Shown here: piece after piece, positions 20,268-38,907 of the stretch
Layout: each line of letters begins with the position of its first letter
Numbering within the stretch: the first letter of the stretch is position 1
Source: a virus
Virus record (IMG/VR): IMGVR_UViG_3300032397_000001
Strand: one strand, 5' to 3'
DNA length: 64,000 nucleotides
Position numbers and translations under genes: made by a program
The notes under the pieces: model-generated
Told to the model about the DNA's origin: nothing
The model's database searches: none
The model's input: the letters and a program-made list of their open reading frames with translations, nothing else

Positions 20268-21416
20268 ATGCCATTCAATTTGCCAAAGTACAACACTTCC
20301 AGGTTCAGTATTGGTCCTTGCGTTGTCTATATGGCGCCCTTCTGTACTACCGGTACGGCGTGTATTCCCAGTACAGATGTGGGGGCTGTAAATGCAGGAG
20401 CAACTCTGACGACAACTCGTGAGAAGACGGAAATCTTTCAGGGATTTCCCAAAACGTTGGTTGATCAGCTCGCGACCCAGGAAACTGCAACTCTCAAGTT
20501 TGAATCGATTGAATGGAATCTTGCCAACTTGGCTAAGGCGCTCGGTACGGGAATTCTGGATGTTGGGTCGGACGCCGTTGGATCGACGCCCTCGCCCATA
20601 AGCCTTACCGGTATTGGGACAGGTCCTTACGTTGGGACGATCACCATCGCGGCTGGTTTGGCAATTGTTCCTGGTTCCGTTCAGATCTTGGATGGTACCT
20701 TAGTTGAAGAGAGCGACGATGGCAACGAAAGCTTCGCGGTTGGTACGGGAACCGTTGATTATGGGACAGGAGCTGTCGAGTATACCTTCGATGTCTCACC
20801 AACGGGGACAGTCATGGCTAGCTGTCAACTCGGCGAGCTCGTTTGTGCTGCTGGAGCGATCGATCTGATGACTCTGTTTCTCAAGTGGCCTTATGTCACC
20901 CCAGATTCTGTAACCATTACCGCTCAGCATGCTGCTGGTGCGCTGGTGGTCACAGATGATGGATCTGGCGGTTTGTCTGGTGACACCGCGGTACCTGGAT
21001 CCGGAGAAGCTGCGAACTCAATCGAGTATGAAACGGGGAAGATTTCGGTCAAGTTCAGTTCAGCGCTAGTAGCTGGCGCTGTGGTTGTGGCAACCTACAA
21101 TGGTACCATGACTGAAACCCTGAGTTTCGGTGGTGAGATCTCCTTCCAGGAGGTGGCAATCAAGCTCGTTCACCAAACGCCGAAGGGGATGACCATCACA
21201 GTCAAGATCTGGAAGGCACAAGGGTCCGGTGCGGTTGAGATGAACTTTGGAAATGATCCTCACGCTTTCCCGATGGAGTTCAGTGGAATGGTGCCCTTCG
21301 ATCCTTGCCTCAAGCAGATTGTGGACTGGGAGGGTAACCTTCTCGTACCTGGTAAACAGCTGTTTGAGGTCACGATCACCAAGGCGGCTAACACCTGCGC
21401 AAGTCAGTGTAGCTAA
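20268..21416 (+). CDS. Major tail (tube) protein with two inserted beta-rich domains
   Basis: IGP.VVY...DVGA, ATLKFESIEWNLANL, IWKAQ; two PGSV/PDSV...DDG...Y.TG inserts; followed by terminator. Confidence 0.8.
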   Translation: MPFNLPKYNTSRFSIGPCVVYMAPFCTTGTACIPSTDVGAVNAGATLTTTREKTEIFQGFPKTLVDQLATQETATLKFESIEWNLANLAKALGTGILDVGSDAVGSTPSPISLTGIGTGPYVGTITIAAGLAIVPGSVQILDGTLVEESDDGNESFAVGTGTVDYGTGAVEYTFDVSPTGTVMASCQLGELVCAAGAIDLMTLFLKWPYVTPDSVTITAQHAAGALVVTDDGSGGLSGDTAVPGSGEAANSIEYETGKISVKFSSALVAGAVVVATYNGTMTETLSFGGEISFQEVAIKLVHQTPKGMTITVKIWKAQGSGAVEMNFGNDPHAFPMEFSGMVPFDPCLKQIVDWEGNLLVPGKQLFEVTITKAANTCASQCS

Positions 21417-21431
21417 AGGGCCTCACTTTCA

Positions 21432-21474
21432 GGAGGTGGAAAGAGTTTAGGTTCTTTCCACCTCCGCTCTTTCT
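21432..21474 (+). terminator. Intrinsic terminator after tail tube gene
   Basis: ggaggtggaaaga/tctttccacctcc stem. Confidence 0.7.
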
Positions 21475-21495
21475 CGATGAAGGGAGGTGCGAACA

Positions 21496-21693
21496 ATGGC
21501 AATCGACTATGGAAACACGGATGTGAAAACCCAACCTCGAGTTTCGGGACCCAAGGTTACTTCTGGGTCAAAGGAAGTCAGAGTTGCCCTACCTGGAATT
21601 TCCCCTCAGCCCAATGTGGGGAATCAGAGGGCGAAGGGTACCCTCGGCGTGGTGAAGCCGCCTAGCCCCAAGGCCGGTGCGGGTGGTGGTTAA
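21496..21693 (+). CDS. Small basic Pro/Gly-rich protein (65 aa)
   Basis: AAGGGAGG RBS before ATG 21496; lies between two terminators; GC-rich codon usage. Confidence 0.6.
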   Translation: MAIDYGNTDVKTQPRVSGPKVTSGSKEVRVALPGISPQPNVGNQRAKGTLGVVKPPSPKAGAGGG

Positions 21694-21732
21694 CCCGAGT
21701 CTCAGGACGGTGTATCGGAAACCCTCCTTGAT

Positions 21733-21761
21733 GGGGCGGCATTAAGACCGCCCCCGTTTTT
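21733..21761 (+). terminator. Intrinsic terminator
   Basis: ggggcgg/ccgcccc stem plus T-tract. Confidence 0.7.
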
Positions 21762-21801: not shown

Positions 21802-22344
21802 ATGACAGAGTCTACGTCGGTTGATTCCAAGGTGATTATCCCTGAACTTATTATTCCCCTCAAGTTCACACTCTCCAAGGTTAATGGTGATCCCGTTGAC
21901 ATTCCTTCAGTTCTATCTTGGGGAAAAGAGAAAAAGGTTTTGGCTATTGTTGGCCAGGCTTTCAAAAAGCTTATGCCTGACAGTAAGGATAAGAAATCTT
22001 CCTTTGACGCAAATGATTTTCTTGACTTCCTGAATACTCTTCCTGAATTCTCTCAGAATGAGGAACTCAAAAGAACTGTCTCTTCCGCGGTCACCAAGTA
22101 TAATCTCACCCAAACGGCTTTTGGTCGAATTGATGCGGCTGCTCTATTGCAGTTTTTCTCTTCTGAAGCTCCCACCTTGATTACCGATCTAGTTTCAATT
22201 GTTACGGCTACTCCGGCGAGCGATGTAGACGAAAACTTTGATGGCACCTCAGTTCTAGGATTCGCAATCCCTTACATTCTTCATGCAATGAGAAAGTACG
22301 CCGGATCTTTTGCAGCTGCGACGCCAATATCTCCTCTCGAGTGA
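21802..22344 (+). CDS. Putative tail assembly chaperone
   Basis: Position between tail tube and TMP; helical. Confidence 0.6.
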   Translation: MTESTSVDSKVIIPELIIPLKFTLSKVNGDPVDIPSVLSWGKEKKVLAIVGQAFKKLMPDSKDKKSSFDANDFLDFLNTLPEFSQNEELKRTVSSAVTKYNLTQTAFGRIDAAALLQFFSSEAPTLITDLVSIVTATPASDVDENFDGTSVLGFAIPYILHAMRKYAGSFAAATPISPLE

Positions 22345-22357: not shown

Positions 22358-22975
22358 ATGTACAAAACTCGATGGGTGAAGAGCCTTTCAGGGAAGTGGT
22401 ATAAGTTTAGGACTCCTGTCTCATTGGAGTTGGAATTAAATCTGGTCTCCCTGCTGCAGTCTTCATTAGATCCCTTGTCTGTGATTTCAGATGCTGTTTC
22501 TGAAATTCTTGATCTTTCCCCTGTTGTAGTTGACGCAGAATTTACTGGTGATCAAATACTTAATGTTTTTAACTTAGCCTTTCCCAAGGTAAATCCTGAA
22601 GAGTCCTCTCAAAAGCTTGAAGAGGTTCAAATTAATTTAGAGAAGGAGGGTGGATCGCTTATTGATTCGTTATCGAAGATGTTAACTTTTTTGACGTTCT
22701 ATGGGCGATTTCAACCTTCTGAAATTCTGAGATTGCCTAGAGCAACCGTTGAAGAAATTCTTAGAGAAACTACCGGGCTACTTGAGGCCGATAAGAAGTT
22801 TCAGTTTGAACTCTCTGTAGTTCATGCTTTAGGTATGATCTTCGGAGAGGGCAAATCGTCAGGCTCAAGTAGCTCTTCGTTTAATAAGGATACTGTAGAT
22901 CTTTCGAATATAGGTGAAGAGGATCTCGGTAAAATTCCTCCTGATATGAGGAGTTTTATAAAGGTAGTCAAGTAA
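22358..22975 (+). CDS. Putative second tail assembly chaperone
   Basis: Directly upstream of TMP; QPSEILRLP motif resembling chaperone C-termini. Confidence 0.5.
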   Translation: MYKTRWVKSLSGKWYKFRTPVSLELELNLVSLLQSSLDPLSVISDAVSEILDLSPVVVDAEFTGDQILNVFNLAFPKVNPEESSQKLEEVQINLEKEGGSLIDSLSKMLTFLTFYGRFQPSEILRLPRATVEEILRETTGLLEADKKFQFELSVVHALGMIFGEGKSSGSSSSSFNKDTVDLSNIGEEDLGKIPPDMRSFIKVVK

Positions 22976-25900
22976 TGGAACAGCTTGGCATTGTTGGTTC
23001 TCTTGACATAAGTCAAATAAAAAGCCAAGTTGATGAACTTAACCGCGTGTTAGGAACCCTCGAAAACTCCTTCCGAAAAGTTGAAAACGTTTTCTCGTCT
23101 GTAGAATCCTCATTAGGAAAAGTTCAGGGTGCATCTAAAGGTCTGTCTGATACGTTAGCTGGTGTTCGTACAAGTTTATCTGGAATGGGAAATATTACAC
23201 AAGTTGCAACTCAAGTACAAAAGAGTGTTCAGGAAATTCAAAAAACTGCAACTGGTATAAAATTAGACTTTAAGATTAGTGATCCTGGTAAGTCAATTAA
23301 ACCTTGGATTGATGAATTGCAATTGGTTGAAAAACAGGTTAGGTCTGTTACTGAAAAGATTAATAAAGAAACACAACAGACTCGATCTCGGTTCTCGGAT
23401 AGTGCGGATGAGATTTCTAACTTTAGAGGTGCAATGGTTGCGACCGGAAAGGGTCAAATACCTATATGGAATGAAGCTCGTACTAATCTTCAATCAATGG
23501 TTGACGTCCTGGGAAGTTATGTTGTAAACTTGGAAAAGGCAAATCAGAGGGGAAAATTATTAGGGAAGAAATCTCTACGCACCGAAATGATAACTGGGCC
23601 ATTTCAGCAAGCTCAGGATATGCTGTTCTCCTTTACTGATATGGTAAAGGGCACCCCCGTATCTGAATTATTTGCTGACTGGGAAGATCCGCTGCGTTCG
23701 TTTTCTACATCGATGGAGAAAACGTTTGGTTCTACAAAGTGGCTTACTTTATTTCAGAAGAACTTTGAACCTTTCCGGGGAACTCTTGCAGAATTAGCTG
23801 CTGTACCAGCACAGCAGATGTCAACAGCTTTTACGTCTTTAATTCCTGAGAGCAAGGCAATGGGTGCGCTCTTTATGGATATTTTTACTGCGAAAGGTCC
23901 TCAGGAACTTGAAGCAAGTTTACGTAGTCTAAGAGCCAATTTAGCAATGTTGATGCCTGAGTCAGCAGGTGCAAAAGCTCTCTTTATGAATTTTCAAGAG
24001 TTAGCTACACTGTTGAGAACTCGATTCCTTGCCACTTCATTTATAGATTTCGAACCTGTTATCACTCAAGCTCTCTTTCGTGTCGGTCAGTTAACCGAAG
24101 AATTTATACAAGCTAAGGCTGCTGGAAGAGATACTTCACAGATTGTAATCGGTCTTGCTGCCGCGGCAAGAGAGTTGGCTTCTGAAGCACAAAGAGTAGG
24201 AGTTGGGATTCAAGGATTTATGGCGCGGGCACCTGGGGCGGGGATGGAAACTTCTATTACTCGACTTGAATCAGCTTTTCAAGAGGAAGGATTGGTTGCT
24301 CAGGAGACTGGTAACCGTGCACAAGAATTCTTTAATATAATTCGAGCAGGCCAAACTAGTCTTAAACAAACTGCAAATGAGATAGAAAAGACTGCTGCCG
24401 CTACTGGAAAATGGGGTGAGTTAGCCCGAAGCACTTATGTAGATCTTAGACGAATTGTGTCTACCTATCAATCTTTTGGCCGCCCCACAGTTATTTCAGG
24501 CATTCCAGAGTCGGCGTCAACAAGTGCAGAGAAACTCTCTTCGACTGCTGCAATTCCTCGAGATTTGAAACGCCAAGTTGATTCATTAGCTGGGGCTTAT
24601 GGACTTTGGGCCACAGCTGATATTACTGCTCGACAAAGTTTTCAGAGAACTGGCTATATCACTTTGGATATTCTTAGACAATTATATAAAGGGTTTGGAG
24701 AGGTTGCGGCTCGACCAATGATGCCTGCTGCGCGTGTTCAGGAGTTGCAACGTGTACGTGGAGCGCTTGAAAAGTTGCTGCCGCCAATGGAATTGTCTAA
24801 AACTGTTTCTACGACTGCGTACAATTCGTTTCAATTTTTAGCTCGAGGCGCAACTCAGTTCTCAAATCTCATCCCTAAGATAGTTGAACGTCTTAACGCT
24901 TCGATTCTTAAAACTCGGGTTGATATTGTAGATCCCACTGCCGCTACTAAGGCAATTCAACCCTTCGAAGCACTTAAAAAGGTTTTAGTGGGTTTACAAG
25001 GAGATCTTCAAGTAATCGCTCAAGAAATTACTTTGCTATATGCTAAGGGAGCGCCTAGCATTGAGGCTATTGCTCAGGCCTTTATGAAAATACGCCCAGA
25101 GACCTTGGAACGTGCTTTTCAAGCAGTAACAGAATTGCAGGGTGCTGGTCGAATGTTGGGAGCTCGTGCTGTTACTGGACCTTTGGATGTTGCTCTTGCA
25201 CAAGTGAAAGCTATCGGTCAAATTCCTCCAGCATTTGAACAGGCCTTCGCTAAAATTCAACCTATGACCACTGGCTTTCTGGACCCTGAAGTAGCTAAGC
25301 GGTCAATGAAAGTTTTCGCGGCTGATCTTGCAGGAATGTTTGGGGGTATAGATGTTGTTCGGTCCGCTCGTAAGAACGGTGAGCAATGGGCTGTCAATTT
25401 CACTCAGGCAGTGAATCAAGGTGTAAAGCCTATCTCTCAATTTATTAAAGAGCAACCAGGTGCACCTATACCTCCTGAGATGGTTCAAAAGTTACAGTCT
25501 CAGATGGCTCAGGCATTCTTTAGTGCTAAGTTACCTCAACTGTTTAGTGGTATTGAGGAAAGTCTTTTTACTTCTGTAGGTATTCTCAATAGAATGGGCC
25601 CGGCAGCTGAGAAGTTCAGAGCGCCATTACAGCAGGCGCAGTTAGATACACAACGTTTAGTTGAGCTTTTCTTGAAGATCAAGTTTCCTGATCTTCGTGC
25701 TGGTGAAGATGTTGGGGTTCTGGAAAGAGATTTTAGTAAACTCTCGAGCAAGATTTCTACTGACTTAAAAGCTTCTTTTGGTGGTGTAGGTGAAACTATA
25801 ATGGGTCAGTTAGCCCAAGCTTACAAGAGCTTGGGAAAACTACCAATGGGGGCTCAATTATTTGGACTTGCTGGTAATACAGATCAAATGTTGCGTCAAG

Positions 25901-28900
25901 TATTTGGTGTATTCTCTCGATTGTTACCTACACTGAAGACTGAAATGCTTCAGACGTTTGATATGCCTTTGGAAATGGCTACAGAATTCTTCGGTAAACT
26001 CCAACAGGATGCTATTCAATTCAGGGCTCTTGTTTCTCAGTCAGCACAACCTTTGATTAGTATGAAGGACGCCTTAGCTGGTACTGCAAACGTGTTCGAG
26101 CGTTTAAATATGGCTCGACGTTTGGGGGCGCCCGCAGAGGTTGTTGAAAGCATCAGAGCTGAGGCAGATGCCTTCATGAAAGATAAGGAACAAGCTCGTC
26201 AGTTAAGTAAACAGAAGGAAGAACTTGGTGCTGCTGAATCAAACGTTGGGCGATTAACAGAACTTGCAATTACATTCTTAGAACGAGAAACTAAATCATT
26301 TAGCAATTTGGGCCAGGCTGCAAATATCTCTTTAGGTGCTCTGACAAGTGTAATTTCAAAACAGGCGGGGCTCTTCAAAGGTTTGACTCGTGATATGGGA
26401 ATCAAAGACTTGTTAACCTTTGAAGGTGTTGTTCCTACAGGTATTACCCCAGAAGTATCGAAATATCTCCAAGCATTTTATAATAATGTTGGTACCAATT
26501 TAGATAAGTTACGCCAGGTTACGGATCAAAAGATCGGGGTATGGTCTGTTGGTTTCGGAAAAGGAATGAACAACTTTGCTTCAGTCGTCAAACAGAATGC
26601 CTTCCGACTTCGTGGAGTAATGGAAACAGTTCAAAGTTCTGCTGCAACTGGTGCACAATTTCGCTGGGAAGGCCTTTTTGATGAACCTACTGTTTTAGCT
26701 CTTCAGAAATCTTCAGGACGTATCTCTTCTGTACTAAAAAGATTCCAAGAAGATCTTATGAAGTTTGGGCAGGGTACAGCTCGTCGAGTGGAATTTGGCC
26801 CTGTTACACAAAGTTTACAACAAGAACTTGCTTTCGTTTTAAACCTTGCTGAGTCTGTACGGCAAAAAATTGCTGTAGGCGAAGTAGGTACTGAACAGTT
26901 ACCGGCGGTTAATCGTTTGTTTCAATATGCAATTCAACTTGATGGTGCGATTACTGCTCTCGAACGTCCTTACCAAAGAATGAGTGAAGTTGCCTCCAAG
27001 GGGAAAGCTTCATTCACCCAGTTAGGCAGAACTTTTGGTTCTGAGCTTTATAAAGCAACCCAGGAGATGGGAAGGTCTGTTACAGGACTTAAACAGCCTA
27101 TTGGTTTAATCGTTCAGAAGATGTTCGGAGAAATCTTCGTTCCTGAGAATCTGGAGAGGATTACAGAGTTTCGTGGGATTACAGAGTTCCTTGGAGAACG
27201 GTTTCCCTCACAAGTTCAGTTTGCTTTGAATGTAGCTGCGAAGAGAGGAATTCCTGTACAAAAACTTCTTCAGCAAATGATTCCAGTTAATGCAGCTACT
27301 CTTGAGGAAGCTTTTCGTAATGCACCTGATGTACCTCGCGTACTTTTGGAAAAAATGTTTAGACCAGAATCTTCACTCAAGTTTCAGCAAACAGCAAAAG
27401 GTGTGGTTGAACAAATCATTCGAGCACCTATGAAAGAAGGATTGCAGCGTGCATCTGAATTAATGAGTGTTGATGCTTTGAAGAGTTTTTCTCAATTCAG
27501 TCTCGCGGATTCTATTCTTCAACCAGCACGTCGTGATTTATCCAAGTTACGTCAAGTAGGTCCTGAGTATGCTAGTCAGTTGAATCAAGTAATAAATTAT
27601 ATTAGTGCAGTTCTTAAAACAGTACCTACAGGAAGACGGATGGGTGGTATCCTGGAACAAGCAGGATTTGACTACTCTCAAATACAAGCGTTACAAGCTT
27701 TTGTACGTGGCGCACAAGGGCCTTTATATCAGTTAAGAAATATTCTTACACAAGCCGCTGATCCTCTAAAGGGGATCTCACCTGAGAAGATGAAGCTTGA
27801 TTTGGGCCTTGATCGTACTGTTATGGGTAACCTGCAGAGAGCGGCAGGTGATGAAGAAAAACTTGGTAAAATGACTCAGTTCTTGAGTACTATGTATGAT
27901 CAAGCTGGGGCCTCTTTAATTGAGTTTGTAGCTCGTCAAGAGACGTGGTCTAGTAAATCAATTCAAGATCTTACCGAGTTGATGTCCTTCTGGAAAGGCC
28001 TGGGTGAGATAATACGCCTGATCACCCAGGAATTACCCAAGATGGGAACAGCTCAGGGCTTAATGGGGTTTGAATTCAAAGCTAGTGATTTACTCACACG
28101 AGGAGCTGAAGCTGGGTCAAGCTTTCGTCAAGGCTTAATGCAATCTATGGATCTTGCTGCCATTGGAGGTGGCATCGGCAAGATGCTCGCGGCTATTATT
28201 GCTAAAGATCCTGAAATGATCTTTGAGATTATGAGAACGGGGTCTATCAGACTGAGAGAAGAATTGCGTCGATTAGGTTATGAAGGAAAAGGTAGTATTG
28301 GTGCGCTTGCAAGTTCTATTGAAAAACTTCTTCCAGGAACTACTTTAGGGCCTCAGTTCTTTGGTGCTTACTTTGAAGCTAATGAACGTTTCTTCTTGGA
28401 GAGTGATAAGACTACTCTTGCTATAATGAATATAGTGCAAGGCTTTGAACAGATAAGGCCAACTGCTGCTGCTAACCTAGTAGCTACCCTTGAGAGAGCC
28501 TCTGCTGCATTGCATGAGGCAGATATTTCTTTTAGAGGTTTTGGTGAGGGTTTAGGAGCTCATACAGTAGAGTTTAAAGCCTTCTCTGATAAGCAGCGTA
28601 CTTTGATTCAACAGTATGCGTCTGGAATGGCTGGTGCAATTAAAAGTCAAGCTGCCTTGTATCAGGCAGATCCTTTTGAGCGTAGCTTTGTAAGATTGAT
28701 ACGTAGTGAAGATACACTCTTTGATCAGTTACGTAATGTTATTCAAACACGCGGTAATGAAATTAAGCAAGTTAATGAGCAAGCTTATAAGGGCTTAACC
28801 GAATTTATTTCGAAACCTATCTCTACTCGTACGGTTGCTGACATTGCAAAAGTTTCTCAGATGCCTGGCTTGGAACAGTTTACAGATATAGGTGGTCTGC

Positions 28901-31900
28901 TAACTAAGCTAGCAGGTGTGAGGAGACTGTTTGAGAATGTAGGACAATCTGTTAAGTCATTACAAGGAATGAAACCCTTTGAAGGTTATGTACGAGATGC
29001 TGCTAGCCTTGAAGTGAACATGTTAAAGGTAATGAGAACGATTACTTCAAGCCTTGATCGTATTAGTCAAGGCAAAGGTATGCAATTAAATGTAAAGGAG
29101 TCCCTTGTCGAGTTAGGTTCCTTGCGAGAACGTTTGAGCGTCATCACTTCGGAGATGCAGGGCTGGGCTCAAGCATCTGCTGCTGGTGGGGCACAATTGC
29201 CTTATTCCTTCGAGTTGACTGCAAACTCCGTTGCAAAGATGGGCCGAGTATTAGAGAATGTAATTTCTGTGCTGCGTGCACTCCCTGCGTCTGGAAGAGT
29301 AACTGAACAAAGTCTTCAAAGATTGAATGACTTGTCAAAGGATTTATGGGGAAGTTTGAAAGCTGTTGACCAAATCACTTTAAAAGATTTAGGGGCACAG
29401 ATTGAAGCTATCTTTTCGAAAGCCTTTGGTGAGAAGATGGGTCCTTGGCTTTATCAAGGATTTGCTAAAGTTCCTGCAGGAGCGCGAACCTTCTTTGGAA
29501 ACTTTCAGAAACAGTTGCAAACGGAAGGATCAAATGTTAATGTTTTACTACAAACTATGTCTACCGAATTTCAAAGTATCTTCGCAAAGTTTGGTGGCAG
29601 ACCTCAGTTGATGTTACAGTACTTTGAAAAAGCAACTCCGCAAATGCGATTGCTTCTGTCTCAGTTTTTCGAGCAAGCAGGTCTTTTGACTGGAGCGGGT
29701 TTCCAAAGTTGGATTACTCAATGGTCGCAATATATGGGTGAAATGAACATTGAGGAAAAGAAAGGTCTTGAGAAACTTCAGAAGCAAATGCTAGAAGGCC
29801 TTTCTACTTTCCGTGAAACAAAATTCTTTCCAGAGCCGAAGGTTCCTACCACATTGTTTGATGTAGCTAAAGCTTTACGTCAAGTGGGGATGAGCTTACA
29901 AGAGATTCGTCAGATTAGTGATTTGGGGTTCATCAAGTTATGGGGTGAAGCTCTTACTCAGCCTTTCAAAATGATTATTGGTCAAGCTGGTGAGGTTAGT
30001 GTTGGCTTGGGTGGAGTCTTTTCAATTATTGGCAATAAGATGGCTGTCTTTGCTAATTCTCTTGACGCTGTGCGTCAAGCTTTCCTTGGGTTAAGACAAG
30101 ATAGTGTACAAGTGCAAGAAGGATTTGTGGCTTTTATTACCTTAATAGAGAAATTGTCTGCAGCCTTCAGAGAATCAAAAGTTGTAGGGTCTCAATGGGG
30201 TGTAGAAATTGTTTCTCAGTTGAGTGTCTTAGGAACTGTTGGCAAGAGTCTTAGTGATTTCACTAAAGGTGCAGCAGGTATAGCCGACTTTCCAAGAATC
30301 TTGCGTGAGATTGATTTTGGTGGTCTTGGTCAACAGTTAACTACATTTATGACAGGTATGGGAGGTGCAGCTGCACAAACGCAAGTTCCTGAACAGTTTA
30401 TGGCACCTTTGAAATCATTCCTTGGAATGGCGAAGCAGTTGAATCAGTTTGCGTTTGCTGCAGAAAATATTCTTAAGTTAACTCAAGCCTTTTCAACGTT
30501 ACAAGCACAACTTGGTTCTAGTCAAGCAGTGTTTCAAAGCTTTGAAGGTACATTTCAGATTTTCAGAAAAATGTTTGAACTACTTCCTACTCTCTCGATA
30601 CCTATGGGTCCTGCAGTCCCTGCTGGAGCTATAGAGAGTGCACGAAACTTTGCACAAGTAATTGCACCTTTAGCTAGTGCAATTCGTAGTGTACAAGACA
30701 TTAACTTTGATGCTGCTATCAATAATATTAATCGTGCAGCCACTGAATTCAAAGCTGCTCTTGAGAAATTGTTTCTAGCTTTAGAACAAGTACCTATCTC
30801 TTCGCAAACTCAGAAGGTGATTTCATTTTTATCAAGACTTGCTACAGCTTTCTCTAAGATTGATTGGACAGTTAATCCTCAAGTGATTACTCAGCAGTTT
30901 GTAAGTACTGCAAGAGCAATTGAAAAAGGCCAGCAAATTGTAGAAGGTCAAGTTCAGGAAGGTGCTGCACAAATTGCATCAGCTGCAGAGAAGGCTGGAG
31001 ATCAAATAAAACGTTCTGGGCTAGGTAGCCTAGGTGATTTAGTTGAGCCTAGTTTAATTTCTCTCTTTGGTGCTGGTGAAGAACCAGTTCCTGAGTACTT
31101 GCGAACCACTTCTCAAGCATACACCCAAACATTGCAGGGAATTGGTGAACGTACTCGAATGTTGGTTACTGAATTCGCTCAGGCTTCCGGTCAAGCTAAT
31201 ATTTTTGGTGAAACATTAATGCAAATGGCACGAGGAGGGCCGTCTGCAGCATTCCGTCAAATGGTTGATGACCTTATTATGTTAGGCCCTGCTATTACTC
31301 AGGACACTACAAAGTTTAATGAGATGCGCCAGTCGTTAGAACGTTTCCTTACTGATGTATCTCAAATGAAGGGTGTAGGAGCTCAGTTTACCGAATTGTC
31401 TGCTCGTATTGGAACGCCAGCTATGATGGGGCCTTCTGGCTTGGTACAAACATTGTCTGATACGGCGCGGGCTATAGATAAGGTTCAAAAGGCAGGGGCA
31501 GAAACTACATTCTTGGATATGATGATCAAGAGTCGGTCGAAAGCTCAAGAACTGCATATTCAGGTTGGAGGCCTTTTGAATTATATGCAGTCTATGGGCC
31601 CACGCTTAAGAGAATCTCTTACTACGGGATTTGCCAGACGAGAATTTTATTCGCAGATTTCTGATATTCGTCGTGCGCTTGAACAAGCAATGACTCCTTT
31701 GCGAGGCTTTGTCGGCTTCCCTCAGATTCGTGTAGACATGGAAAAGATGTCATCGGACCTCTCAAGAATGTCGTCAATGTCTACGGGGATACTTACAGTA
31801 TGGGATAGATTCTCAGGTGTAATTCGAAGTGCTCGTGATAGTTTCCTGAACTTGATTGCTTATCAAACACGATGGTATTTATCTATGCAGATTTTCTGGG

Positions 31901-34900
31901 CAGTGTTTGGTCAGATGGATCAAGTTATAATGAATTTTGGAAAACTAGATACTGAGGTGAGACGCGCAACTCGTACAATTCGTGATTTGAACTTTGCAGT
32001 ATTAGGTGTAGATCCTGCATTGCGTGCAATGGCTCAGGTTGGGGTTGAGTCTGCAAGACACATTGAGAAAATTTTCCGTACCTTGTTTATGGCTCAAATA
32101 CGTACCACTTTTTATAATATGATGCGATCTCTAGGGGCTTCTACTCAAGAAGTTGGAGAAGTGTTGTATCAATTAGGATCTGCAGGATTAAACGTAAACA
32201 CGTCGTTAGCGGCTGTGGTTCCAACTTTACGTATGATCATTGGGTCAGAGGCTGATACAACAGAGTCTACCAAATTGGTTGCTGGGGCTTACTATTTATA
32301 TGGTGATTCACTTCAGGGTGCAATGACTGATACAGAGAAGTTTGCACGTATTACAGATATTTTGTCAGCATCGTTTCGTGATCACTTGGTGGAATTGAAT
32401 GAAATGGTTACTGGTATGGGATATGTGATCACGACTGGAAAATTATCAGGGTTATCTTTTGAAGAACTGGCTGCTGCTTTGGGTGTTCTCAATGATAATA
32501 TGTTGCGGGGATCGAAAGCAGGGCGTTCATTAAATCAGATGCTAGTTCATTTAGCTCAGCGCACTCAAGATGTTAAAATATCTTTAATGCAAGTTGCTCA
32601 GCAGCACGGTGCTGGTGATGTTGTAGCTGAAGCTTTTAAAAAAATAGAACAAGAAGCTGCTACACAAGGGCGTCAAGTTCGGCCGTTTGATTATCTTATT
32701 GAAGCTGGAAAAATTCTAGAACCTGTACTTGCAAAGGCAGGGCTCTCAACAGAAAATTTAGCTAATCAAGCTCAGATTATGGGAATTATTGGATCAAGAG
32801 CGTATGCAGTTCTCTTATTAAAAGCTAGAGAATATGGGCAAGCTCTCTTCCAGTTGCAATATACATCTTTCGGTGCAGGCGAGCAAATGTCTGATGTAAT
32901 GGTTACCGGCTTCGCTCGTGCTGTAAATAGGATTGAAGGCTTTGCTCGCTCAGGTATGGGACGTGTGTTTGGAATCTTTAAAGGTACTGTAGAAGGAATT
33001 GGAGGAAGTCTTGTTCGTCTGGAAGATACCACACGTGGTGTATTTGGTACATTTGGACTTGAGGTTAACAATGCGAAGAGTTTAATATCTAGCTTTTTGT
33101 TAATCTTGTCTGCACAAGCAGTTCTGAAGATTTGGGGAAAGAGTTTGCCTTTCTTTCCTAACATTAAGAAGACAATTGAAGACTTCAAAAATTGGAGAGC
33201 AACTACCCAGGAAACTTCAGCTGCTTTTATGAACTTTTCTAGAGCAGCTTTTACTTCAACTACTCCAATTGAAAAACTGGGTTTATTGACTAGACAATAC
33301 TTTGAGAAAGTTCCTGAGACTGGTCGACTGTCTTCTGCTCTACGGGGGGCTAACTTACAATTTGTTGCGCTTACAGGAAATGTTGGTGCATTGACAGAAC
33401 AGCAGCGTGTTGCTGTTCAAAGTGTAACTCAGTTTGGAAAAGTCTTAACTCAAGTGATGGCTGGTGCTCCAATTGGGCAAATGCGTTTATACTTGGATCA
33501 AGTCTCTCAAGTAAGTGCTGTACAACAAATCCTTACAACTAGGCCTTTCAAAATACAAATAGATACAGCTGAGGCAGTTGCGCGGTTGAGATCAGGCGAG
33601 CTTAGTATAGGATCTTTCAGGCAGAAGTTTTTTGAGTTACAGAAAGAGGCAGCAAAGGGGGGTATTAAGTTTCCTCAGTTTATGGGTGCAACTTTTCTTA
33701 CTTCAGGGGTAGAGGCTATACGTTCACTTAGTGGTACATATGCTCAGTTTGAAGATGTTATTCGTGGAGTGAGTAAGGGATCAATTGGAGATTTCACTAA
33801 GTTTCAACAGGTAGTGTCTGATCCTGCTGCTTGGAATCAATTTGTAACTACTGTAAAGACAGCAGCTCAAACTGGTGAAGAAAGTATGGTTCGACTGTCT
33901 GAGTCAATTGTTGGGATAAACGAAAAAGGAACTATTCCGGCAGCACGAGCGTTTGAAGCTCAAATGGCAAGATTTGGGGTTGCTGTACAAACAGAGGCAA
34001 TGAAATCAATGACATGGGGTCGATATCTTGGGGAAGTATTCAAAGTTGCATTTCCGGGGCTAGTGAATTTATGGAGTGGTATTAAAAACTTTGGTGCAAC
34101 CTCCCAAAGAGTTTTTTCGGCTTTTGTAGTACTTATAAGAAGCGCAACTAGTAGCATGAGAGGTTTGGAGACAGCATCTGCTCTTGCTACTATTCGAATA
34201 GCTGGTCTAGGAGCTGCTGCAAAGGCTTTCGCAGCTTTGAGGGCTGTCCTTGCAGCTGTGACTGGTAATCTTTTACAACTTGCTTTACAAATTGCGACAA
34301 CTCTTCTTTATGCATATGGATTTGATAAAGCATTAAATTGGTGGGAAAGACTCACCAGAGGAGTAGATAAATATGCTGAGGAGGTAGGTCAGGCGGGTGC
34401 AGAGTTTCAAAAGAGTGTTGCTTTTATGACTGCACCATTACCTCAAATGATTTCGTACTTTGAGAGAGTCGGTGAAACACTTGATGAGATGATGGCATCA
34501 GATCGAACCTTCTTTGTAAAAACTGATAGTATTGACAATGCGGTTGCTAAATTTAGTGAATTAAGTATGTTGGTTCAAAGCAGTACCATGTCAGAGATTA
34601 AGATTCTTGTAGATACTGGGAGACTTACGGAGGCAAATGTATTATTGCGGCAGTCAATACCTGAAATAGTAAAAGCGCGTGAGGAAGCTGCTAAAAGAGT
34701 TTTCATGAACTTTGGCAATTTTGGTAGAGACTTTAGTATTATGGTGATGTCAAGCAAACCTGCTATTAATAAAGCAATGAAAGAAATTAGTGAGTTAGTA
34801 TACAAAAGTTTATCAGATGCTGAACGTATGAAAATCGATCCGAACATGTTAAAAGTCAAAACTCTTAACATTTCGAAAATTCCTTTGGATAAACTAACAC

Positions 34901-37900
34901 CCGAAGTTATTCAGTGGCAAAAGGTGGGTATTAAGGCTGCTGAACAAATTGCAGAAGGCGCTGCTTCCGTATTTCAGACAGGTGCTCGAGTTTTGAGTTT
35001 GATGATGAGGATCGACCCTTCAAAGGTGGGCAAGGAGTTTGCATTAAAGTTTACTAGGGAAATACAAAAGACTGTACCTTTAATTGAGGGTTCCTTTCAA
35101 GAAATTTCCAGAGAAATGCAGCAAGGTGTTTTTGGAGATCCTCGGGTTATCGAAGAAAGCCTTGACAGAATAACAAAAGCTTTTGTACGTACTGCTTCAG
35201 GGAAAAAGTATATTGGTGACCTTACTAGAGCAATGAAGGATTTTAGAGAAGAAGTGTTTGAGACCAAAGGGATGACTCCTGAAAGGTTTGTTTTTACATA
35301 TCTTCCACTCTTAGCTAAAGAAAGTTCACAAGAGGTTCAACAACTTGCAAAAGATTTGGATGATCCTCTTGTAACTGATTTGCGAAAAGCTCTCTTGTTA
35401 GTCAATGCTTTTAATAAAGAGTTGGCTGTTTTTGTTGCAGAACAAACAAAAATTCAAGAAGGGGCCAGTATTGCATGGAATTTACAATCGGTTGCTGACC
35501 TAGTTGATGCTTTGCGTGATAAATTTGAGACACTACGTCAAAAGATTGAGCTTGTAGGTGCTGAACCTGTCGCTGATATGAAACAAAATATAGAATCTAG
35601 TTTCAAGGAAATTGAAGGAAAGATTAGAGGACATAAGAACCTCTCACTCAAGTTGGATGTGGGATTAGTAATGACTGATTGGGCTGTTGATTTTAATAAA
35701 GCATTTGAAGGGGCATTTACATATGCACCAGAATCTGTTTTGGGTAAATGGGAACGTGAGTTTTATAAAACGGCCGATCCTTTAAGAGAAGCATTCTCAA
35801 GTGCCTTTACTGAAATATCTTTTTGGGCTGAAGATGCCGGAAGAAGTATCGAACAAGGATTATCTATCCCGGGTTTTGATGCAATTGTAAAAGCATCTCA
35901 ATCGGGCTTAACTGTATTGGAAAGAGGCCAACGAGATTGGGTATTAGATCTTCGTCATAATTTTCATTCTGCAGAGTTATATCAGGAAGAATACATAAAA
36001 ACATTAAATTCACTTGCTAAATCGGGCCAGTTGACACTGTCTCAGGTTTCTACCGAAAGAATTCCTACTGTGGACTTAGGAGGTAAAGGAGGTGAAGGCG
36101 GTGGAGAGACTTCACGACTCGAAGAAACCAAGAAAGAGTTGCAAGCTAGTTTGAAGGAAGGACTTGACGAAGCTCAAAAGTTAGCAGAAGCTATTCAGAA
36201 GAATGTTCGTGGTGCCATTGATAGTACTATTAAACGTGTTGAAGCATTGCTTTCAGCTCTTTCTAAGGTAGTTGAAGTAAATATCAAAGTAGCTGAATCA
36301 GCTAGAAAAATGTCTTCAGGCTATAATCTCGCTAATAAGTTGTTGGAAACCACAATAGGGTATGCAGAGAAGTTATCTGAACAAACGAATTTGTGGGCGG
36401 TTCAACTTCAAAGATTACAAGTTGGTTTTGATGTAAGTCGAATCGCAAAACAGTTTGAAAGAGTTACTCAGGCATATCAGGGTAGTGGTCCTGAGTTGCA
36501 AATAGGTCCTGAAAAAGCAGCTGAGCGAATGGGTCAGATCATTGACGAATTGAATAAGTCTGTTGATCAATCAATGGGTAATCTTATCAATGCGGTTACT
36601 CGTGCATTTGATATAGCTGCAAAGGAAGATGAGAAATATATTGACAAACGATTGAAAAACAACCTAAAATGGTCTGATGAAATTTCAGCTTCTGATGACA
36701 CATATTATCAAAACCAGATTCAGGAGATTGATAAGTTAACTAGTGTTAGTGAAACGGAAAAGGAAAGACGCAAAGCTCAAATTCAGAGTGAGATTGAATG
36801 GTCAAAGAAAGTAGCAGATGTGAGGAAGGCTAAACTTGAAGCTGAAGCTGAACGATCTAAAGAATTAGATCAAGAGATACGGACAGGTGAACTTGTTCGG
36901 TTTATGAAAGAGATATTTGGAAAGAAGGGTGAACTTACACTTGATGAGCAAGGAATGGAAACAGCTCTTCAAAAGTTATCTATCAAAAGTCCTGAGTTGA
37001 TGTTTGCTCTAAAGAGTTATCAAGGAACACAGGAAGCAGCTAAAAATCAGTTAGAAGCAATAGCTACTTTTAATGAGTCAATCGAAAAAAATATTAGAAA
37101 TAATCTCAAACAAGCTGAGGATCAATTAAAGGAATTGAGTATTATAGATAAATCAGTGGAAAAATTCGCGATCGATGTAGGTAAACAGTTGCGTGAGATT
37201 GCATTTGCTCTTAAGAAAGGCAAGATAGGGAATGGTCCAGGTGAAGTCTTTGACTTAATGGACAAGTTGAAGGGTACTGTTTCTATACCTAATATTGCAG
37301 AGACATCTAGTGGTACATATAAGCTAGCGTCAGAAGAAACCTCAGCACGTGCCCTTGATATAAATATGGTTAAGGAGTCTGTGCTAGCCTTTGATCAATC
37401 ACTTGATCAAGTATCAAAATCCCTTTCAGAGGGAGGGTTTGAACAGCTCCAACAAAATCTTCAAGCGCTTTCCGGAGGAATGAATAACTTTCTCCAGCGA
37501 ATGATAGAGGGACAAAGTCCTGAACAATTGAGGCAAGCAGCCGTATCTGTGAGGCAAGCAGCCGTATCTGTTTCAGAAACTCTTGAATCAGCTCAAACAA
37601 AATTATCCGGAGCAGCCGCAAATAATGTTAATATGCTTGAAGAGGTGGTACGTGCAACCAGAAGTCTAGGTACTTTACCCTATATTGCAGAGACATCTAA
37701 GCCAGCGCCAAAAGAGACTACATTGCGTGCCTTTGGTATGACTTATGGGAAAGTTACGTTTGATTTGAATTCAGTGGGTGAAAAGATTCAAAATGGAGCA
37801 GCCACAATACAGCAGGGTGCACAGGTAACAGGTCAAGCTTTAGTAGACGCAGGCCAAGAAATTGAACGAAGTGGGGTGGCCGCAGCACAAAGAATAGCTG

Positions 37901-38907
37901 GTGTTGAGATTTCAACTCCAATAAACCAAATGAAAACTTCTCTGACATCTTATAGTAGGGGCTTCACAAATGTTATGTCATCAATGAAAGACAAGCTTCA
38001 GGTGTTCACAGAGTTTAGAATGCCTGATCAAGATCCTGCAGCTCTTACACGTATATTCGGGGATTTAGTTTCTAGTTTTGGCGGATACTCTGAAAGTCTA
38101 AGGAGAATTACACTTCCTGAAGGAATTCCTGAATTTGGTATGGTTAAGGAGTCTGTGCTAGCCTTTGATCAATCACTTGATCAAGTATCAAAATCCTTGG
38201 GAGAGTCACAAATCAGTTCTAAAGGGTTTGAACAGCTCCAACAAAATCTTCAAGCGCTTTCCGGAGGAATGAATAACTTTCTCCAGCGAATGATAGAGGG
38301 ACAAAGTCCTGAACAATTGAGGCAAGCAGCCGTATCTGTTTCAAAAACTCTTGAATCAGCTCAAACAAAATTATCCGGATTATCCGGAGCAGCCGCAATA
38401 CAGCAGGGTGCTCCTGCAATTGCTGCTGCAACGGATTTGGTGAATATAAGTTTTAATACAGTTGCTGATAATGCTAAAAATCTTGCTAATATACTTGAAG
38501 AGGTGGTACGTGAGATTGGAAGTCGAGGTTCTATACCTATACCTACAAGTGGAGTAGTCACTAAGCAGTTTGGTGGTCCCATTCCGGGTTTTGGTGGGGG
38601 TGATAAACATCATGTATTAGCTGAGGGTGGAGAATTTGTTATTCGTAAGGAGATGGTCAGACGATACGGCCAGGATTTGTTCAACGCATATAATGAAGGA
38701 AAGATTAAAGCAGATGAACTTGCAGCATGGATGGGGATATCTGCAATTAAGTCTGCAGTACAAAAACAAAAGATTCTTGAATCGCCTGTGAAAAGATTCT
38801 CACTTGATATTGTAGGTACTCCATTCAAGGGTTTGGCAACAGAAGATATGTTAACTCAACTTGAGAAGGGTCTCAAGAGAAAACGTATGGTGGGCCAAAA
38901 TAAATAA
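22975..38907 (+). CDS. Tape measure protein, 5310 aa
   Basis: TP901/PhageMin_Tail-like core (EVGEVLYQLGSAG...GLSFEELAAALGVL...GSKAGRSL) near nt 32000-32950; C-terminal GGPIPG...EGGEFVIRKEMVRRYG; helical Ala/Gln-rich. Confidence 0.93.
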   Translation: MEQLGIVGSLDISQIKSQVDELNRVLGTLENSFRKVENVFSSVESSLGKVQGASKGLSDTLAGVRTSLSGMGNITQVATQVQKSVQEIQKTATGIKLDFKISDPGKSIKPWIDELQLVEKQVRSVTEKINKETQQTRSRFSDSADEISNFRGAMVATGKGQIPIWNEARTNLQSMVDVLGSYVVNLEKANQRGKLLGKKSLRTEMITGPFQQAQDMLFSFTDMVKGTPVSELFADWEDPLRSFSTSMEKTFGSTKWLTLFQKNFEPFRGTLAELAAVPAQQMSTAFTSLIPESKAMGALFMDIFTAKGPQELEASLRSLRANLAMLMPESAGAKALFMNFQELATLLRTRFLATSFIDFEPVITQALFRVGQLTEEFIQAKAAGRDTSQIVIGLAAAARELASEAQRVGVGIQGFMARAPGAGMETSITRLESAFQEEGLVAQETGNRAQEFFNIIRAGQTSLKQTANEIEKTAAATGKWGELARSTYVDLRRIVSTYQSFGRPTVISGIPESASTSAEKLSSTAAIPRDLKRQVDSLAGAYGLWATADITARQSFQRTGYITLDILRQLYKGFGEVAARPMMPAARVQELQRVRGALEKLLPPMELSKTVSTTAYNSFQFLARGATQFSNLIPKIVERLNASILKTRVDIVDPTAATKAIQPFEALKKVLVGLQGDLQVIAQEITLLYAKGAPSIEAIAQAFMKIRPETLERAFQAVTELQGAGRMLGARAVTGPLDVALAQVKAIGQIPPAFEQAFAKIQPMTTGFLDPEVAKRSMKVFAADLAGMFGGIDVVRSARKNGEQWAVNFTQAVNQGVKPISQFIKEQPGAPIPPEMVQKLQSQMAQAFFSAKLPQLFSGIEESLFTSVGILNRMGPAAEKFRAPLQQAQLDTQRLVELFLKIKFPDLRAGEDVGVLERDFSKLSSKISTDLKASFGGVGETIMGQLAQAYKSLGKLPMGAQLFGLAGNTDQMLRQVFGVFSRLLPTLKTEMLQTFDMPLEMATEFFGKLQQDAIQFRALVSQSAQPLISMKDALAGTANVFERLNMARRLGAPAEVVESIRAEADAFMKDKEQARQLSKQKEELGAAESNVGRLTELAITFLERETKSFSNLGQAANISLGALTSVISKQAGLFKGLTRDMGIKDLLTFEGVVPTGITPEVSKYLQAFYNNVGTNLDKLRQVTDQKIGVWSVGFGKGMNNFASVVKQNAFRLRGVMETVQSSAATGAQFRWEGLFDEPTVLALQKSSGRISSVLKRFQEDLMKFGQGTARRVEFGPVTQSLQQELAFVLNLAESVRQKIAVGEVGTEQLPAVNRLFQYAIQLDGAITALERPYQRMSEVASKGKASFTQLGRTFGSELYKATQEMGRSVTGLKQPIGLIVQKMFGEIFVPENLERITEFRGITEFLGERFPSQVQFALNVAAKRGIPVQKLLQQMIPVNAATLEEAFRNAPDVPRVLLEKMFRPESSLKFQQTAKGVVEQIIRAPMKEGLQRASELMSVDALKSFSQFSLADSILQPARRDLSKLRQVGPEYASQLNQVINYISAVLKTVPTGRRMGGILEQAGFDYSQIQALQAFVRGAQGPLYQLRNILTQAADPLKGISPEKMKLDLGLDRTVMGNLQRAAGDEEKLGKMTQFLSTMYDQAGASLIEFVARQETWSSKSIQDLTELMSFWKGLGEIIRLITQELPKMGTAQGLMGFEFKASDLLTRGAEAGSSFRQGLMQSMDLAAIGGGIGKMLAAIIAKDPEMIFEIMRTGSIRLREELRRLGYEGKGSIGALASSIEKLLPGTTLGPQFFGAYFEANERFFLESDKTTLAIMNIVQGFEQIRPTAAANLVATLERASAALHEADISFRGFGEGLGAHTVEFKAFSDKQRTLIQQYASGMAGAIKSQAALYQADPFERSFVRLIRSEDTLFDQLRNVIQTRGNEIKQVNEQAYKGLTEFISKPISTRTVADIAKVSQMPGLEQFTDIGGLLTKLAGVRRLFENVGQSVKSLQGMKPFEGYVRDAASLEVNMLKVMRTITSSLDRISQGKGMQLNVKESLVELGSLRERLSVITSEMQGWAQASAAGGAQLPYSFELTANSVAKMGRVLENVISVLRALPASGRVTEQSLQRLNDLSKDLWGSLKAVDQITLKDLGAQIEAIFSKAFGEKMGPWLYQGFAKVPAGARTFFGNFQKQLQTEGSNVNVLLQTMSTEFQSIFAKFGGRPQLMLQYFEKATPQMRLLLSQFFEQAGLLTGAGFQSWITQWSQYMGEMNIEEKKGLEKLQKQMLEGLSTFRETKFFPEPKVPTTLFDVAKALRQVGMSLQEIRQISDLGFIKLWGEALTQPFKMIIGQAGEVSVGLGGVFSIIGNKMAVFANSLDAVRQAFLGLRQDSVQVQEGFVAFITLIEKLSAAFRESKVVGSQWGVEIVSQLSVLGTVGKSLSDFTKGAAGIADFPRILREIDFGGLGQQLTTFMTGMGGAAAQTQVPEQFMAPLKSFLGMAKQLNQFAFAAENILKLTQAFSTLQAQLGSSQAVFQSFEGTFQIFRKMFELLPTLSIPMGPAVPAGAIESARNFAQVIAPLASAIRSVQDINFDAAINNINRAATEFKAALEKLFLALEQVPISSQTQKVISFLSRLATAFSKIDWTVNPQVITQQFVSTARAIEKGQQIVEGQVQEGAAQIASAAEKAGDQIKRSGLGSLGDLVEPSLISLFGAGEEPVPEYLRTTSQAYTQTLQGIGERTRMLVTEFAQASGQANIFGETLMQMARGGPSAAFRQMVDDLIMLGPAITQDTTKFNEMRQSLERFLTDVSQMKGVGAQFTELSARIGTPAMMGPSGLVQTLSDTARAIDKVQKAGAETTFLDMMIKSRSKAQELHIQVGGLLNYMQSMGPRLRESLTTGFARREFYSQISDIRRALEQAMTPLRGFVGFPQIRVDMEKMSSDLSRMSSMSTGILTVWDRFSGVIRSARDSFLNLIAYQTRWYLSMQIFWAVFGQMDQVIMNFGKLDTEVRRATRTIRDLNFAVLGVDPALRAMAQVGVESARHIEKIFRTLFMAQIRTTFYNMMRSLGASTQEVGEVLYQLGSAGLNVNTSLAAVVPTLRMIIGSEADTTESTKLVAGAYYLYGDSLQGAMTDTEKFARITDILSASFRDHLVELNEMVTGMGYVITTGKLSGLSFEELAAALGVLNDNMLRGSKAGRSLNQMLVHLAQRTQDVKISLMQVAQQHGAGDVVAEAFKKIEQEAATQGRQVRPFDYLIEAGKILEPVLAKAGLSTENLANQAQIMGIIGSRAYAVLLLKAREYGQALFQLQYTSFGAGEQMSDVMVTGFARAVNRIEGFARSGMGRVFGIFKGTVEGIGGSLVRLEDTTRGVFGTFGLEVNNAKSLISSFLLILSAQAVLKIWGKSLPFFPNIKKTIEDFKNWRATTQETSAAFMNFSRAAFTSTTPIEKLGLLTRQYFEKVPETGRLSSALRGANLQFVALTGNVGALTEQQRVAVQSVTQFGKVLTQVMAGAPIGQMRLYLDQVSQVSAVQQILTTRPFKIQIDTAEAVARLRSGELSIGSFRQKFFELQKEAAKGGIKFPQFMGATFLTSGVEAIRSLSGTYAQFEDVIRGVSKGSIGDFTKFQQVVSDPAAWNQFVTTVKTAAQTGEESMVRLSESIVGINEKGTIPAARAFEAQMARFGVAVQTEAMKSMTWGRYLGEVFKVAFPGLVNLWSGIKNFGATSQRVFSAFVVLIRSATSSMRGLETASALATIRIAGLGAAAKAFAALRAVLAAVTGNLLQLALQIATTLLYAYGFDKALNWWERLTRGVDKYAEEVGQAGAEFQKSVAFMTAPLPQMISYFERVGETLDEMMASDRTFFVKTDSIDNAVAKFSELSMLVQSSTMSEIKILVDTGRLTEANVLLRQSIPEIVKAREEAAKRVFMNFGNFGRDFSIMVMSSKPAINKAMKEISELVYKSLSDAERMKIDPNMLKVKTLNISKIPLDKLTPEVIQWQKVGIKAAEQIAEGAASVFQTGARVLSLMMRIDPSKVGKEFALKFTREIQKTVPLIEGSFQEISREMQQGVFGDPRVIEESLDRITKAFVRTASGKKYIGDLTRAMKDFREEVFETKGMTPERFVFTYLPLLAKESSQEVQQLAKDLDDPLVTDLRKALLLVNAFNKELAVFVAEQTKIQEGASIAWNLQSVADLVDALRDKFETLRQKIELVGAEPVADMKQNIESSFKEIEGKIRGHKNLSLKLDVGLVMTDWAVDFNKAFEGAFTYAPESVLGKWEREFYKTADPLREAFSSAFTEISFWAEDAGRSIEQGLSIPGFDAIVKASQSGLTVLERGQRDWVLDLRHNFHSAELYQEEYIKTLNSLAKSGQLTLSQVSTERIPTVDLGGKGGEGGGETSRLEETKKELQASLKEGLDEAQKLAEAIQKNVRGAIDSTIKRVEALLSALSKVVEVNIKVAESARKMSSGYNLANKLLETTIGYAEKLSEQTNLWAVQLQRLQVGFDVSRIAKQFERVTQAYQGSGPELQIGPEKAAERMGQIIDELNKSVDQSMGNLINAVTRAFDIAAKEDEKYIDKRLKNNLKWSDEISASDDTYYQNQIQEIDKLTSVSETEKERRKAQIQSEIEWSKKVADVRKAKLEAEAERSKELDQEIRTGELVRFMKEIFGKKGELTLDEQGMETALQKLSIKSPELMFALKSYQGTQEAAKNQLEAIATFNESIEKNIRNNLKQAEDQLKELSIIDKSVEKFAIDVGKQLREIAFALKKGKIGNGPGEVFDLMDKLKGTVSIPNIAETSSGTYKLASEETSARALDINMVKESVLAFDQSLDQVSKSLSEGGFEQLQQNLQALSGGMNNFLQRMIEGQSPEQLRQAAVSVRQAAVSVSETLESAQTKLSGAAANNVNMLEEVVRATRSLGTLPYIAETSKPAPKETTLRAFGMTYGKVTFDLNSVGEKIQNGAATIQQGAQVTGQALVDAGQEIERSGVAAAQRIAGVEISTPINQMKTSLTSYSRGFTNVMSSMKDKLQVFTEFRMPDQDPAALTRIFGDLVSSFGGYSESLRRITLPEGIPEFGMVKESVLAFDQSLDQVSKSLGESQISSKGFEQLQQNLQALSGGMNNFLQRMIEGQSPEQLRQAAVSVSKTLESAQTKLSGLSGAAAIQQGAPAIAAATDLVNISFNTVADNAKNLANILEEVVREIGSRGSIPIPTSGVVTKQFGGPIPGFGGGDKHHVLAEGGEFVIRKEMVRRYGQDLFNAYNEGKIKADELAAWMGISAIKSAVQKQKILESPVKRFSLDIVGTPFKGLATEDMLTQLEKGLKRKRMVGQNK
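37365..38398 (+). repeat. Near-identical ~255-bp in-frame duplication in TMP (37365-37621 vs 38139-38398)
   Basis: Direct nucleotide identity (atggttaaggagtctgtgctagcc...ggagcagccgcaa) with small in-frame indels. Confidence 0.9.

Follow-up and report, generated by a model that had tools for sequence, protein, structure and literature searches.

Results

The tail module

The stretch of viral DNA analysed in this work (the window, 64,000 nucleotides of the IMG/VR record IMGVR_UViG_3300032397_000001) has a G+C content of about 40% and carries every one of its sizeable open reading frames (ORFs) on the + strand. Its structural genes follow one another in the order MCP, adaptor, Neck1-like, tube, two chaperone-like ORFs, tape measure protein (TMP), phrog_4408, and tail/tail-tip proteins. 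The features discussed below, in window coordinates, are:

16505-17866 (+), MCP gene (phrog_10)
17954-18562 (+), head-tail adaptor gene, between the MCP gene and the Neck1-like ORF
20268..21416 (+), tail tube protein gene, 382 aa (homology to 190-aa tube proteins)
21432..21754 (+), two terminator-like hairpins, after the tube gene and before the chaperone-like genes
21802..22344 (+), first tail-assembly-chaperone-like ORF, 180 aa (by position)
22358..22975 (+), second chaperone-like ORF, 205 aa, its stop overlapping the TMP start
22975..38907 (+), TMP gene, 5,310 aa (ORF, core domain, identical ENA record)
22981..23589 (+), N-terminal coiled-coil segment, aa 3-205 (weak phrog_4704 and phrog_1533 matches)
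23590..31470 (+), long pre-core region, aa ~206-2832, non-repetitive, predicted helical and free of known domains
31471..33276 (+), extended conserved core, aa 2833-3434, with the TP901-type domain at aa 3039-3284 (nt 32089-32826)
33082..34299 (+), two hydrophobic, membrane-segment-like stretches, aa 3370-3388 and 3737-3775 (Kyte-Doolittle scan)
37357..38538 (+), recent duplication, in frame, towards the C-terminus, aa 4795-4902 and 5053-5188 (blastp, DNA repeats)
38584..38904 (+), conserved C-terminal module, with PGFGGGD (aa 5204) and GGEFVIRK (aa 5218), running to the end (alignment of giants)

The 382-aa protein is the tail tube protein, made of a 190-aa core (aa 1-100 and 262-382) plus an insert of about 160 aa. 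The two halves of this core are 50-65% identical to 190-aa proteins encoded directly upstream of giant TMPs at five other loci (L001, L003, L004, L006 and L007), and in the ESM Atlas the 190-aa form falls into clusters named ‘phage tail tube protein’, with a score of 0.96 and 213 of 256 features shared. Its first 97 residues also match phrog_2175, ‘protein with Ig domain’. The insert (aa ~100-262) is absent from the 190-aa homologues of the other giant-TMP phages, and its region has weak PHROG matches in common with a 473-aa protein encoded at 39833-41254.

In the closest relative of the window phage the tube gene is split (L010:14240-17344, on the contig of L002, IMGVR_UViG_3300033146_005951), with 14260-14424 coding for aa 7-60 and 16364-17338 for aa 62-382. 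The two parts are separated by a group I intron (RF00028, 77 bits, 14402-14734) and the ORF of a 470-aa LAGLIDADG endonuclease (14892-16304), and a second, partial group I match is found at 14000-14208. Base composition also marks this gene in the window itself, as the 2-kb intervals 16001-18000 (MCP) and 20001-22000 (tube) have G+C fractions of 0.51 and 0.50, versus about 0.36-0.44 elsewhere, possibly because codon usage is distinct in the two proteins that are needed in the largest amounts.

Downstream of the tube gene, a spacer of 385 nt (21417-21801) holds both hairpins, one at 21432-21465 with a 15-bp stem and the other at 21733-21754 with seven G-C pairs followed by a T run, as well as a short open frame starting near 21496. 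The hairpins would be expected to lower expression of the genes that follow, and together with the spacer they could set the large tube-to-TMP expression ratio needed by a very long tail. Of the two ORFs beyond the spacer, the 180-aa one gives no family hit and has homologues in the same place in L010, L006, L003, L004, L001 and L007, whilst the 205-aa one has a homologue directly before the TMP gene in L002/L010 (42% identity) and in L006. We call both chaperone-like, on position and synteny. A programmed frameshift between them was considered and rejected, as the downstream frame is closed by a stop just before its ATG, the only slippery heptamer lies far upstream, and the two ORFs are separate, with no overlapping frame at their junction.

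Judging from its gene content, the tail module is of siphovirus type and has no sheath gene. One candidate for such a gene, an extra 374-aa ORF upstream of the tube gene of L004, turned out to be TnpB/IS605 OrfB (PF01385, PF07282, PF12323; L004:1224-2348), lying between a small Zn-finger-like gene and the tube gene of a phage whose TMP has 4,678 aa.

The TMP gene and its integrity

The TMP gene lies downstream of the tube gene, between the chaperone-like and the tip genes. Its ATG shares one base with the stop of the 205-aa ORF (TAATG, 22973-22977), and its own stop overlaps the start of the next ORF by one base in an identical TAATG junction, so the gene is translationally coupled to both of its neighbours. 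An earlier note, made from the letters of the window, had pointed to an uninterrupted 15.9-kb ORF here, and this is borne out: 22975..38907 is one unbroken frame with an ATG start and 5,310 codons translated without a stop, an opening with a chance probability of about 1e-111 at a stop frequency of 3/64.

A reading frame of such length could in principle be an artefact of assembly, either a chimera or a gene inflated by collapsed or expanded repeats, and there is a place where this might happen. DNA repeats within the gene are restricted to 37365-37680 and 38139-38540 (80-100% identical), and the near-identical pair of segments of about 255 nt that they contain near the 3′ end could give an error of one unit, with a change in length of at most ~258 aa, or ~5%. 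The first 14 kb of the gene, however, are repeat-free, and an ENA contig of 117.8 kb encodes an identical protein. The misassembly that the earlier note had allowed for is contradicted by a 6,418-aa homologue in IMG/VR (P0004), which comes from a different data set and is collinear with the window protein over almost its whole length. We consider an artefact scarcely credible.

The TP901-type core and the regions downstream

Both profiles of the TP901-type core are matched well above their cut-offs, PF10145 (PhageMin_Tail) at aa 3050-3227 with 65.5 bits (cut-off 33.2) and TIGR01760 (tape_meas_TP901) at aa 3039-3284 with 49.8 bits (cut-off 28.8), and these positions agree with the earlier claim that the core begins only near residue 3000. 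Eleven PHROG families match the same stretch, nine of them TMP families. Judged by its position, its core domain and its architecture, the predicted protein is a genuine phage tail TMP.

The extended core of about 600 aa is 30-45% identical in all the giant TMPs identified in this work. The hydrophobic stretches just after it are likewise common to all giants, with equivalents in P0004, L015 and L006. Further on, the two copies of the recent C-terminal duplication are 59% identical as proteins (blastp, E 1e-39). The C-terminal module aligns in all six giants compared, the 4,678-aa type included, with the pattern PG[YF]GGGD, then PGE.V[IV], then a basic tail; a 36-aa stretch of it gives weak matches, every one of which falls within annotated mycobacteriophage TMP genes.

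The long region before the core

At the very start of the protein, aa 3-205 weakly match the N-termini of the TMP families phrog_4704 (E 1e-5) and phrog_1533 (E 3e-4), and generic coiled-coil families too. The resemblance to TMPs is only suggestive, since it may reflect coiled-coil composition. In the TMP families concerned the core comes about 80 positions later, and this hints that the extra material of the window protein was inserted internally and not at the tip.

The earlier note had proposed to look for repeats in residues 1-2900; searched by segment blastp and by block HMMs against the protein, the pre-core region shows none, and block-against-block hhalign of the first nine blocks gave no hit of 60% probability or more. 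The same searches, extended along the protein as sliding segments and block HMMs, recover a single repeat, the C-terminal duplication. In composition the pre-core region equals the rest of the protein, being rich in A, L, G, S, E and Q, with 5.5% Phe and no Cys; the whole protein has no Cys and 12 His, none of the latter within its first 1,846 residues. Conserved aromatic, Gly and Pro positions are present along the region. Hydrophobic residues recur with a period of 3.4-3.7 over the full length (autocorrelation peaks at lags 7, 11, 4 and 14), and aromatics show no pronounced spacing of 11 residues as in mycobacteriophages (best z 2.5-3.5).

The description of this region as a helical extension fits that periodicity and AlphaFold2 models of low confidence. 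From shallow alignments, aa 250-1449 are modelled as 83% helix (mean pLDDT 48) and aa 1500-2699 as 75% helix (mean pLDDT 44), with no beta domain. In place of a single continuous rod, the models show numerous helices, each about 20 residues long, with loops between them. A Foldseek search with the aa 250-1449 model returned only generic helical-repeat proteins (TM <0.12, E >0.009), and searches of PDB sequences with segments or profiles of aa 250-1449, 1500-2699 and 2800-3900 returned no match. Among 1.84 billion representative proteins, aa 1500-2699 find only themselves and a 6,416-aa protein (P0005). In the ESM Atlas feature search, aa 600-2600 have a low recognition score, with TMPs as the nearest named clusters (0.89), which we take as a lead only.

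Neither an enzyme nor a globular fold emerges from any of this. Pfam, PHROG and NCBIfam give no match in the pre-core region beyond the weak coiled-coil-type hits at aa 3-205, and no enzyme domain anywhere in the protein, RNA polymerase and the muralytic and peptidase types (M23, lysozyme, VanY) included. The motif DxDxD is absent from all 5,310 residues, the nearest relaxed pattern being DINFD at 2575, and HExxH is absent from the whole protein. The comparison to be made is with gp96 of the Thermus phage P23-45, a TMP of 5,002 aa in a phage with a tail of 800 nm, which begins with a virion RNA polymerase of ~1,100 residues (DFDGD at 779) and also bears a metallopeptidase domain (PMC10770324). 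The window protein is 6% longer than gp96 and lacks both DxDxD and HExxH, whereas gp96 has both enzyme parts. Given the lack of motifs and of family or PDB matches, and the helical prediction, the window TMP gives no sign of a fused enzyme, unlike gp96.

Relatives of the window protein

Scanning IMG/VR with a single core sequence yielded no relatives, and a profile of two sequences did; the hits of the core profile came from IMG/VR (6 loci), JGI metagenomes (51 loci) and GTDB genomes (3 loci). The TMP ORFs found fall into these lengths:

Giant, complete: 6,418 aa (L002), 5,310 aa (window), 4,831 aa (L065), 4,678 aa (L015, L003, L004) and 4,603 aa (L006)
Giant, incomplete: at least 4,977 aa (L017, cut by the contig end), plus fragments
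Remaining relatives, complete: 1,026-2,513 aa

In the comparison of TMP lengths among relatives suggested in the earlier note, the giants, of 4,603-6,418 aa, group together, apart from the relatives of 1,026-2,513 aa. In the maximum-likelihood tree of the core, eight giant loci stand on one side of a branch with support 100/99; the tree leaves out L064 and L065, found later, as well as a 5,156-aa protein, P0007. It is compatible with a single origin of the giants, which is not proven by a tree rooted at its midpoint only. The core sequences appear to define a clade whose TMPs normally have 4,600-6,400 residues. Two members of the wider set, L041 and L043 (Ga0180431 and Ga0180432), have identical cores at zero branch length and TMP ORFs of 1,026 and 2,382 aa, which points either to a stop or frameshift by which they differ or to a sequencing error in one contig.

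The closest of the other giants is that of L002 (IMG/VR UViG_3300033146_005951), a phage with an MCP 63% identical to that of the window phage (43% in the case of L006) and with P0004 encoded in the same position as the window TMP. Residues 592-4748 of the window protein (P0001) are collinear with residues 841-5025 of P0004 at 26.7% identity, 4,157 versus 4,185 residues, so that length is kept within 1% over this span; further matches cover aa 269-549 and aa 5059-5309. Total length nonetheless differs by 21% between these two closest lineages. Within the sister lineage (L002 versus L013 and L014), all the 600-codon windows tested have a dN/dS of 0.08-0.53, with the minimum in the core and the maximum close to the C-terminus.

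These alignments bear on the idea that the ORF encodes a polyprotein, cut into a TMP of normal size and other virion or ejection proteins, in which case the length of the gene would say little about the tail. Processing of TMPs does occur, lambda gpH and T5 pb2 being both processed near the C-terminus, but what is removed in the known cases is only a short end piece. In the window protein, moreover, no domain boundaries, linkers or repeated cleavage-type motifs are seen, and the homology to P0004 runs unbroken, with no shuffling of modules, from aa 592 to 4748. We regard cleavage into several products as improbable.

Similarity over the long pre-core region reaches less far than the core. It is recognisable only in P0004, P0005 and P0007, the last of which shares aa 882-1782 and 1966-3430 of the window protein, and the pre-core part of the 4,600-4,800-aa types has no detectable similarity to it. 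The length that precedes the core is 2,833-3,138 aa in the window, L002 and L017, 1,877-2,064 aa in L015, L006 and L065, and only 35-1,171 aa in the other relatives, which makes the long front part an addition specific to the clade.

Such an addition need not measure anything, and the earlier note had raised a separate function after ejection as an alternative. It is conceivable that only the part from the core onwards, some 2,300-2,500 residues, is the ruler, with a tail of ~0.35-0.4 µm, and that the pre-core ~2,800 residues are a conserved helical cargo, expelled before the DNA, which builds or lengthens a conduit through a thick envelope or acts in the cell. Distant relatives make do with the same core and far less in front of it; the models show short helices, which might assemble into bundles, and a folded protein would be in keeping with the conserved aromatic, Gly and Pro positions. 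The TMP of P23-45 carries an N-terminal module that is not a ruler (PMC10770324), and P0004 shows that modules do get inserted, as a block of ~870 aa towards its C-terminus, which includes a weak SNase-like match, has no equivalent in the window protein. Yet the pre-core region has neither a catalytic motif nor a domain and matches no PDB sequence or fold, its composition is indistinguishable from that of the remaining TMP, and in the systems known so far the tube encloses, and is lengthened by, all that lies N-terminal of the end bound to the tip, by the numbers even the polymerase part of P23-45. We therefore hold a front part made of cargo to be possible and rather doubtful, and prefer the reading in which the whole chain measures.

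Some sub-threshold matches in the relatives may be recorded here. The SNase-like match of P0004 (PF00565, aa ~5326-5435, L002: ~16650-16980; 17.4 bits versus a cut-off of 21, E 0.006) spans nearly the whole Staphylococcal nuclease profile and lies within the ~870-aa block. The 4,678-aa P0003 (L001) resembles VanY D-Ala-D-Ala carboxypeptidase at aa ~3270-3340 (22.8 bits versus 25), and the 4,678-aa branch may thus carry a cell-wall enzyme that the window protein lacks. As to hosts, L064 (JAERRX010000147.1), 8.7 kb wholly inside a TMP ORF, is binned with a Sulfurimonas sp. MAG, and L065 (DYKD01000004.1), a 90-kb contig with the 4,831-aa TMP, with a Brevinema andersonii MAG whose isolate name suggests a sulfidic cave; both binnings are a weak lead to host or habitat.

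Comparison with cultured phages

Megablast of the TMP gene against cultured phages found no match, and neither did tblastn of aa 1-2900 against 50,697 phage records; tblastn of aa 2800-5310 gave only core hits, of 24-28% identity, in TMPs of Vibrio, Yersinia and Staphylococcus phages. No Thermus phage record was retrieved with either half, and the MCP shares 22-27% identity with its counterparts in T5-like phages (e.g., Proteus phage Stubb and Vibrio phage X1), so the earlier supposition of a lineage different from that of the Thermus phages holds.

With TMPs of the TP901-1 type the window protein shares a core above both cut-offs, the predicted helical character, the hydrophobic stretches after the core and a gene placed between chaperone and tail-tip genes. 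Ordinary members of this type are, however, several-fold shorter, and the core of the window protein starts ~2,830-3,040 aa in, as opposed to 35-1,171 aa in its distant relatives. T5, too, has a non-contractile tail module, and the MCP of T5-like phages is distantly related to that of the window. Its pb2, the TMP of the nearest cultured capsid relatives, has ~1,200 aa and a C-terminal peptidase motif. The TMP searches against cultured phages gave no T5-like record, and the window protein has no such motif. The uncultured giants (P0004/L002, P0005, P0007, L065, P0003/L015, L006 and L017) have the same core, hydrophobic stretches and C-terminal module.

Discussion

The length of the TMP gene and that of the tail are known to go together in lambda and in the mycobacteriophages. 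The same link is stated in PMC1796659. Taking 0.15-0.16 nm of tail per TMP residue, the window protein would correspond to a tail of ~0.80-0.85 µm if its whole chain measures, the 6,418-aa relative to one of ~0.96-1.03 µm, and the clade altogether to predicted tails of ~0.7-1 µm. The rule holds for the one giant that has been measured, P23-45, with 5,002 aa and 800 nm (PMC10770324). This phage, whose TMP agrees with the ~5000 aa that the earlier note gave for Thermus phages, and P74-26 (TMP of 5,002 aa, tail of ~0.8-0.9 µm) have the only giant TMP tied to a measured, extremely long tail (PMC10770324, PMC10034513). Like the window phage they combine a TMP of ~5,000 residues with a siphovirus-type module.

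That the window TMP is a genuine ruler over its full length is the reading to which we incline, with moderate confidence. In favour of some caution, part of a giant TMP can evidently be something other than a ruler, going by P23-45; the chain could double back in places and so measure a shorter length, since the models consist of short helices and loops; and selection on exact length is not evident, given the 21% difference in total length between the two closest lineages.

If the entire chain does measure, tail assembly could proceed as follows. A few copies of the extended, helical TMP would be anchored to the tail-tip complex by the C-terminal module, as in lambda and TP901-1, and kept soluble by the two chaperone-like proteins encoded upstream. 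The tube protein, with its 190-aa core, would then polymerise around them until the N-terminus is reached, and some 200 tube rings would be required for a tail of ~0.8-0.85 µm. During infection the TMP would be ejected, with its hydrophobic stretches after the core helping to form the passage through the membrane. This course of assembly, the length and the ejection role are what we infer from the genes and from better-known phages.

It is hard to refrain from a bolder speculation, which we rate as unlikely. The conserved pre-core ~2,800 aa, free of enzymes and repeats, would not be a ruler but a new kind of ejected helical device, for example material extending the DNA conduit across an unusually thick envelope or sheath, and specific to this clade of uncultured phages, the Sulfurimonas- and Brevinema-binned contigs included. 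If, on the other hand, the whole chain does measure, the sister phage with the 6,418-aa TMP would have, with ~1 µm, the longest tail of any virus.

Giant tape measures as such were already known, and what is new is a coherent clade of giant TMPs, together with a window protein with no recognisable enzyme. In the literature covered, which was incomplete and makes for weak evidence, we found no description of this clade or of a TMP longer than 5,002 aa.

To our knowledge, the phages with tails approaching a micrometre belong to a single small group that infects Thermus. The giant TMP of these is partly an RNA polymerase, whereas that of the window phage has no recognisable enzyme, and the clade would give a cleaner test of the length rule at this scale. 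A clade with TMPs of 4,600-6,400 residues would also show that extreme tail length originated independently. To build a tube of 0.8 µm, some 1,200 subunits have to come together around a few copies of a protein of 580 kDa, and this raises the questions of how such an assembly attains its fidelity and of which host surface makes such a tail worthwhile.
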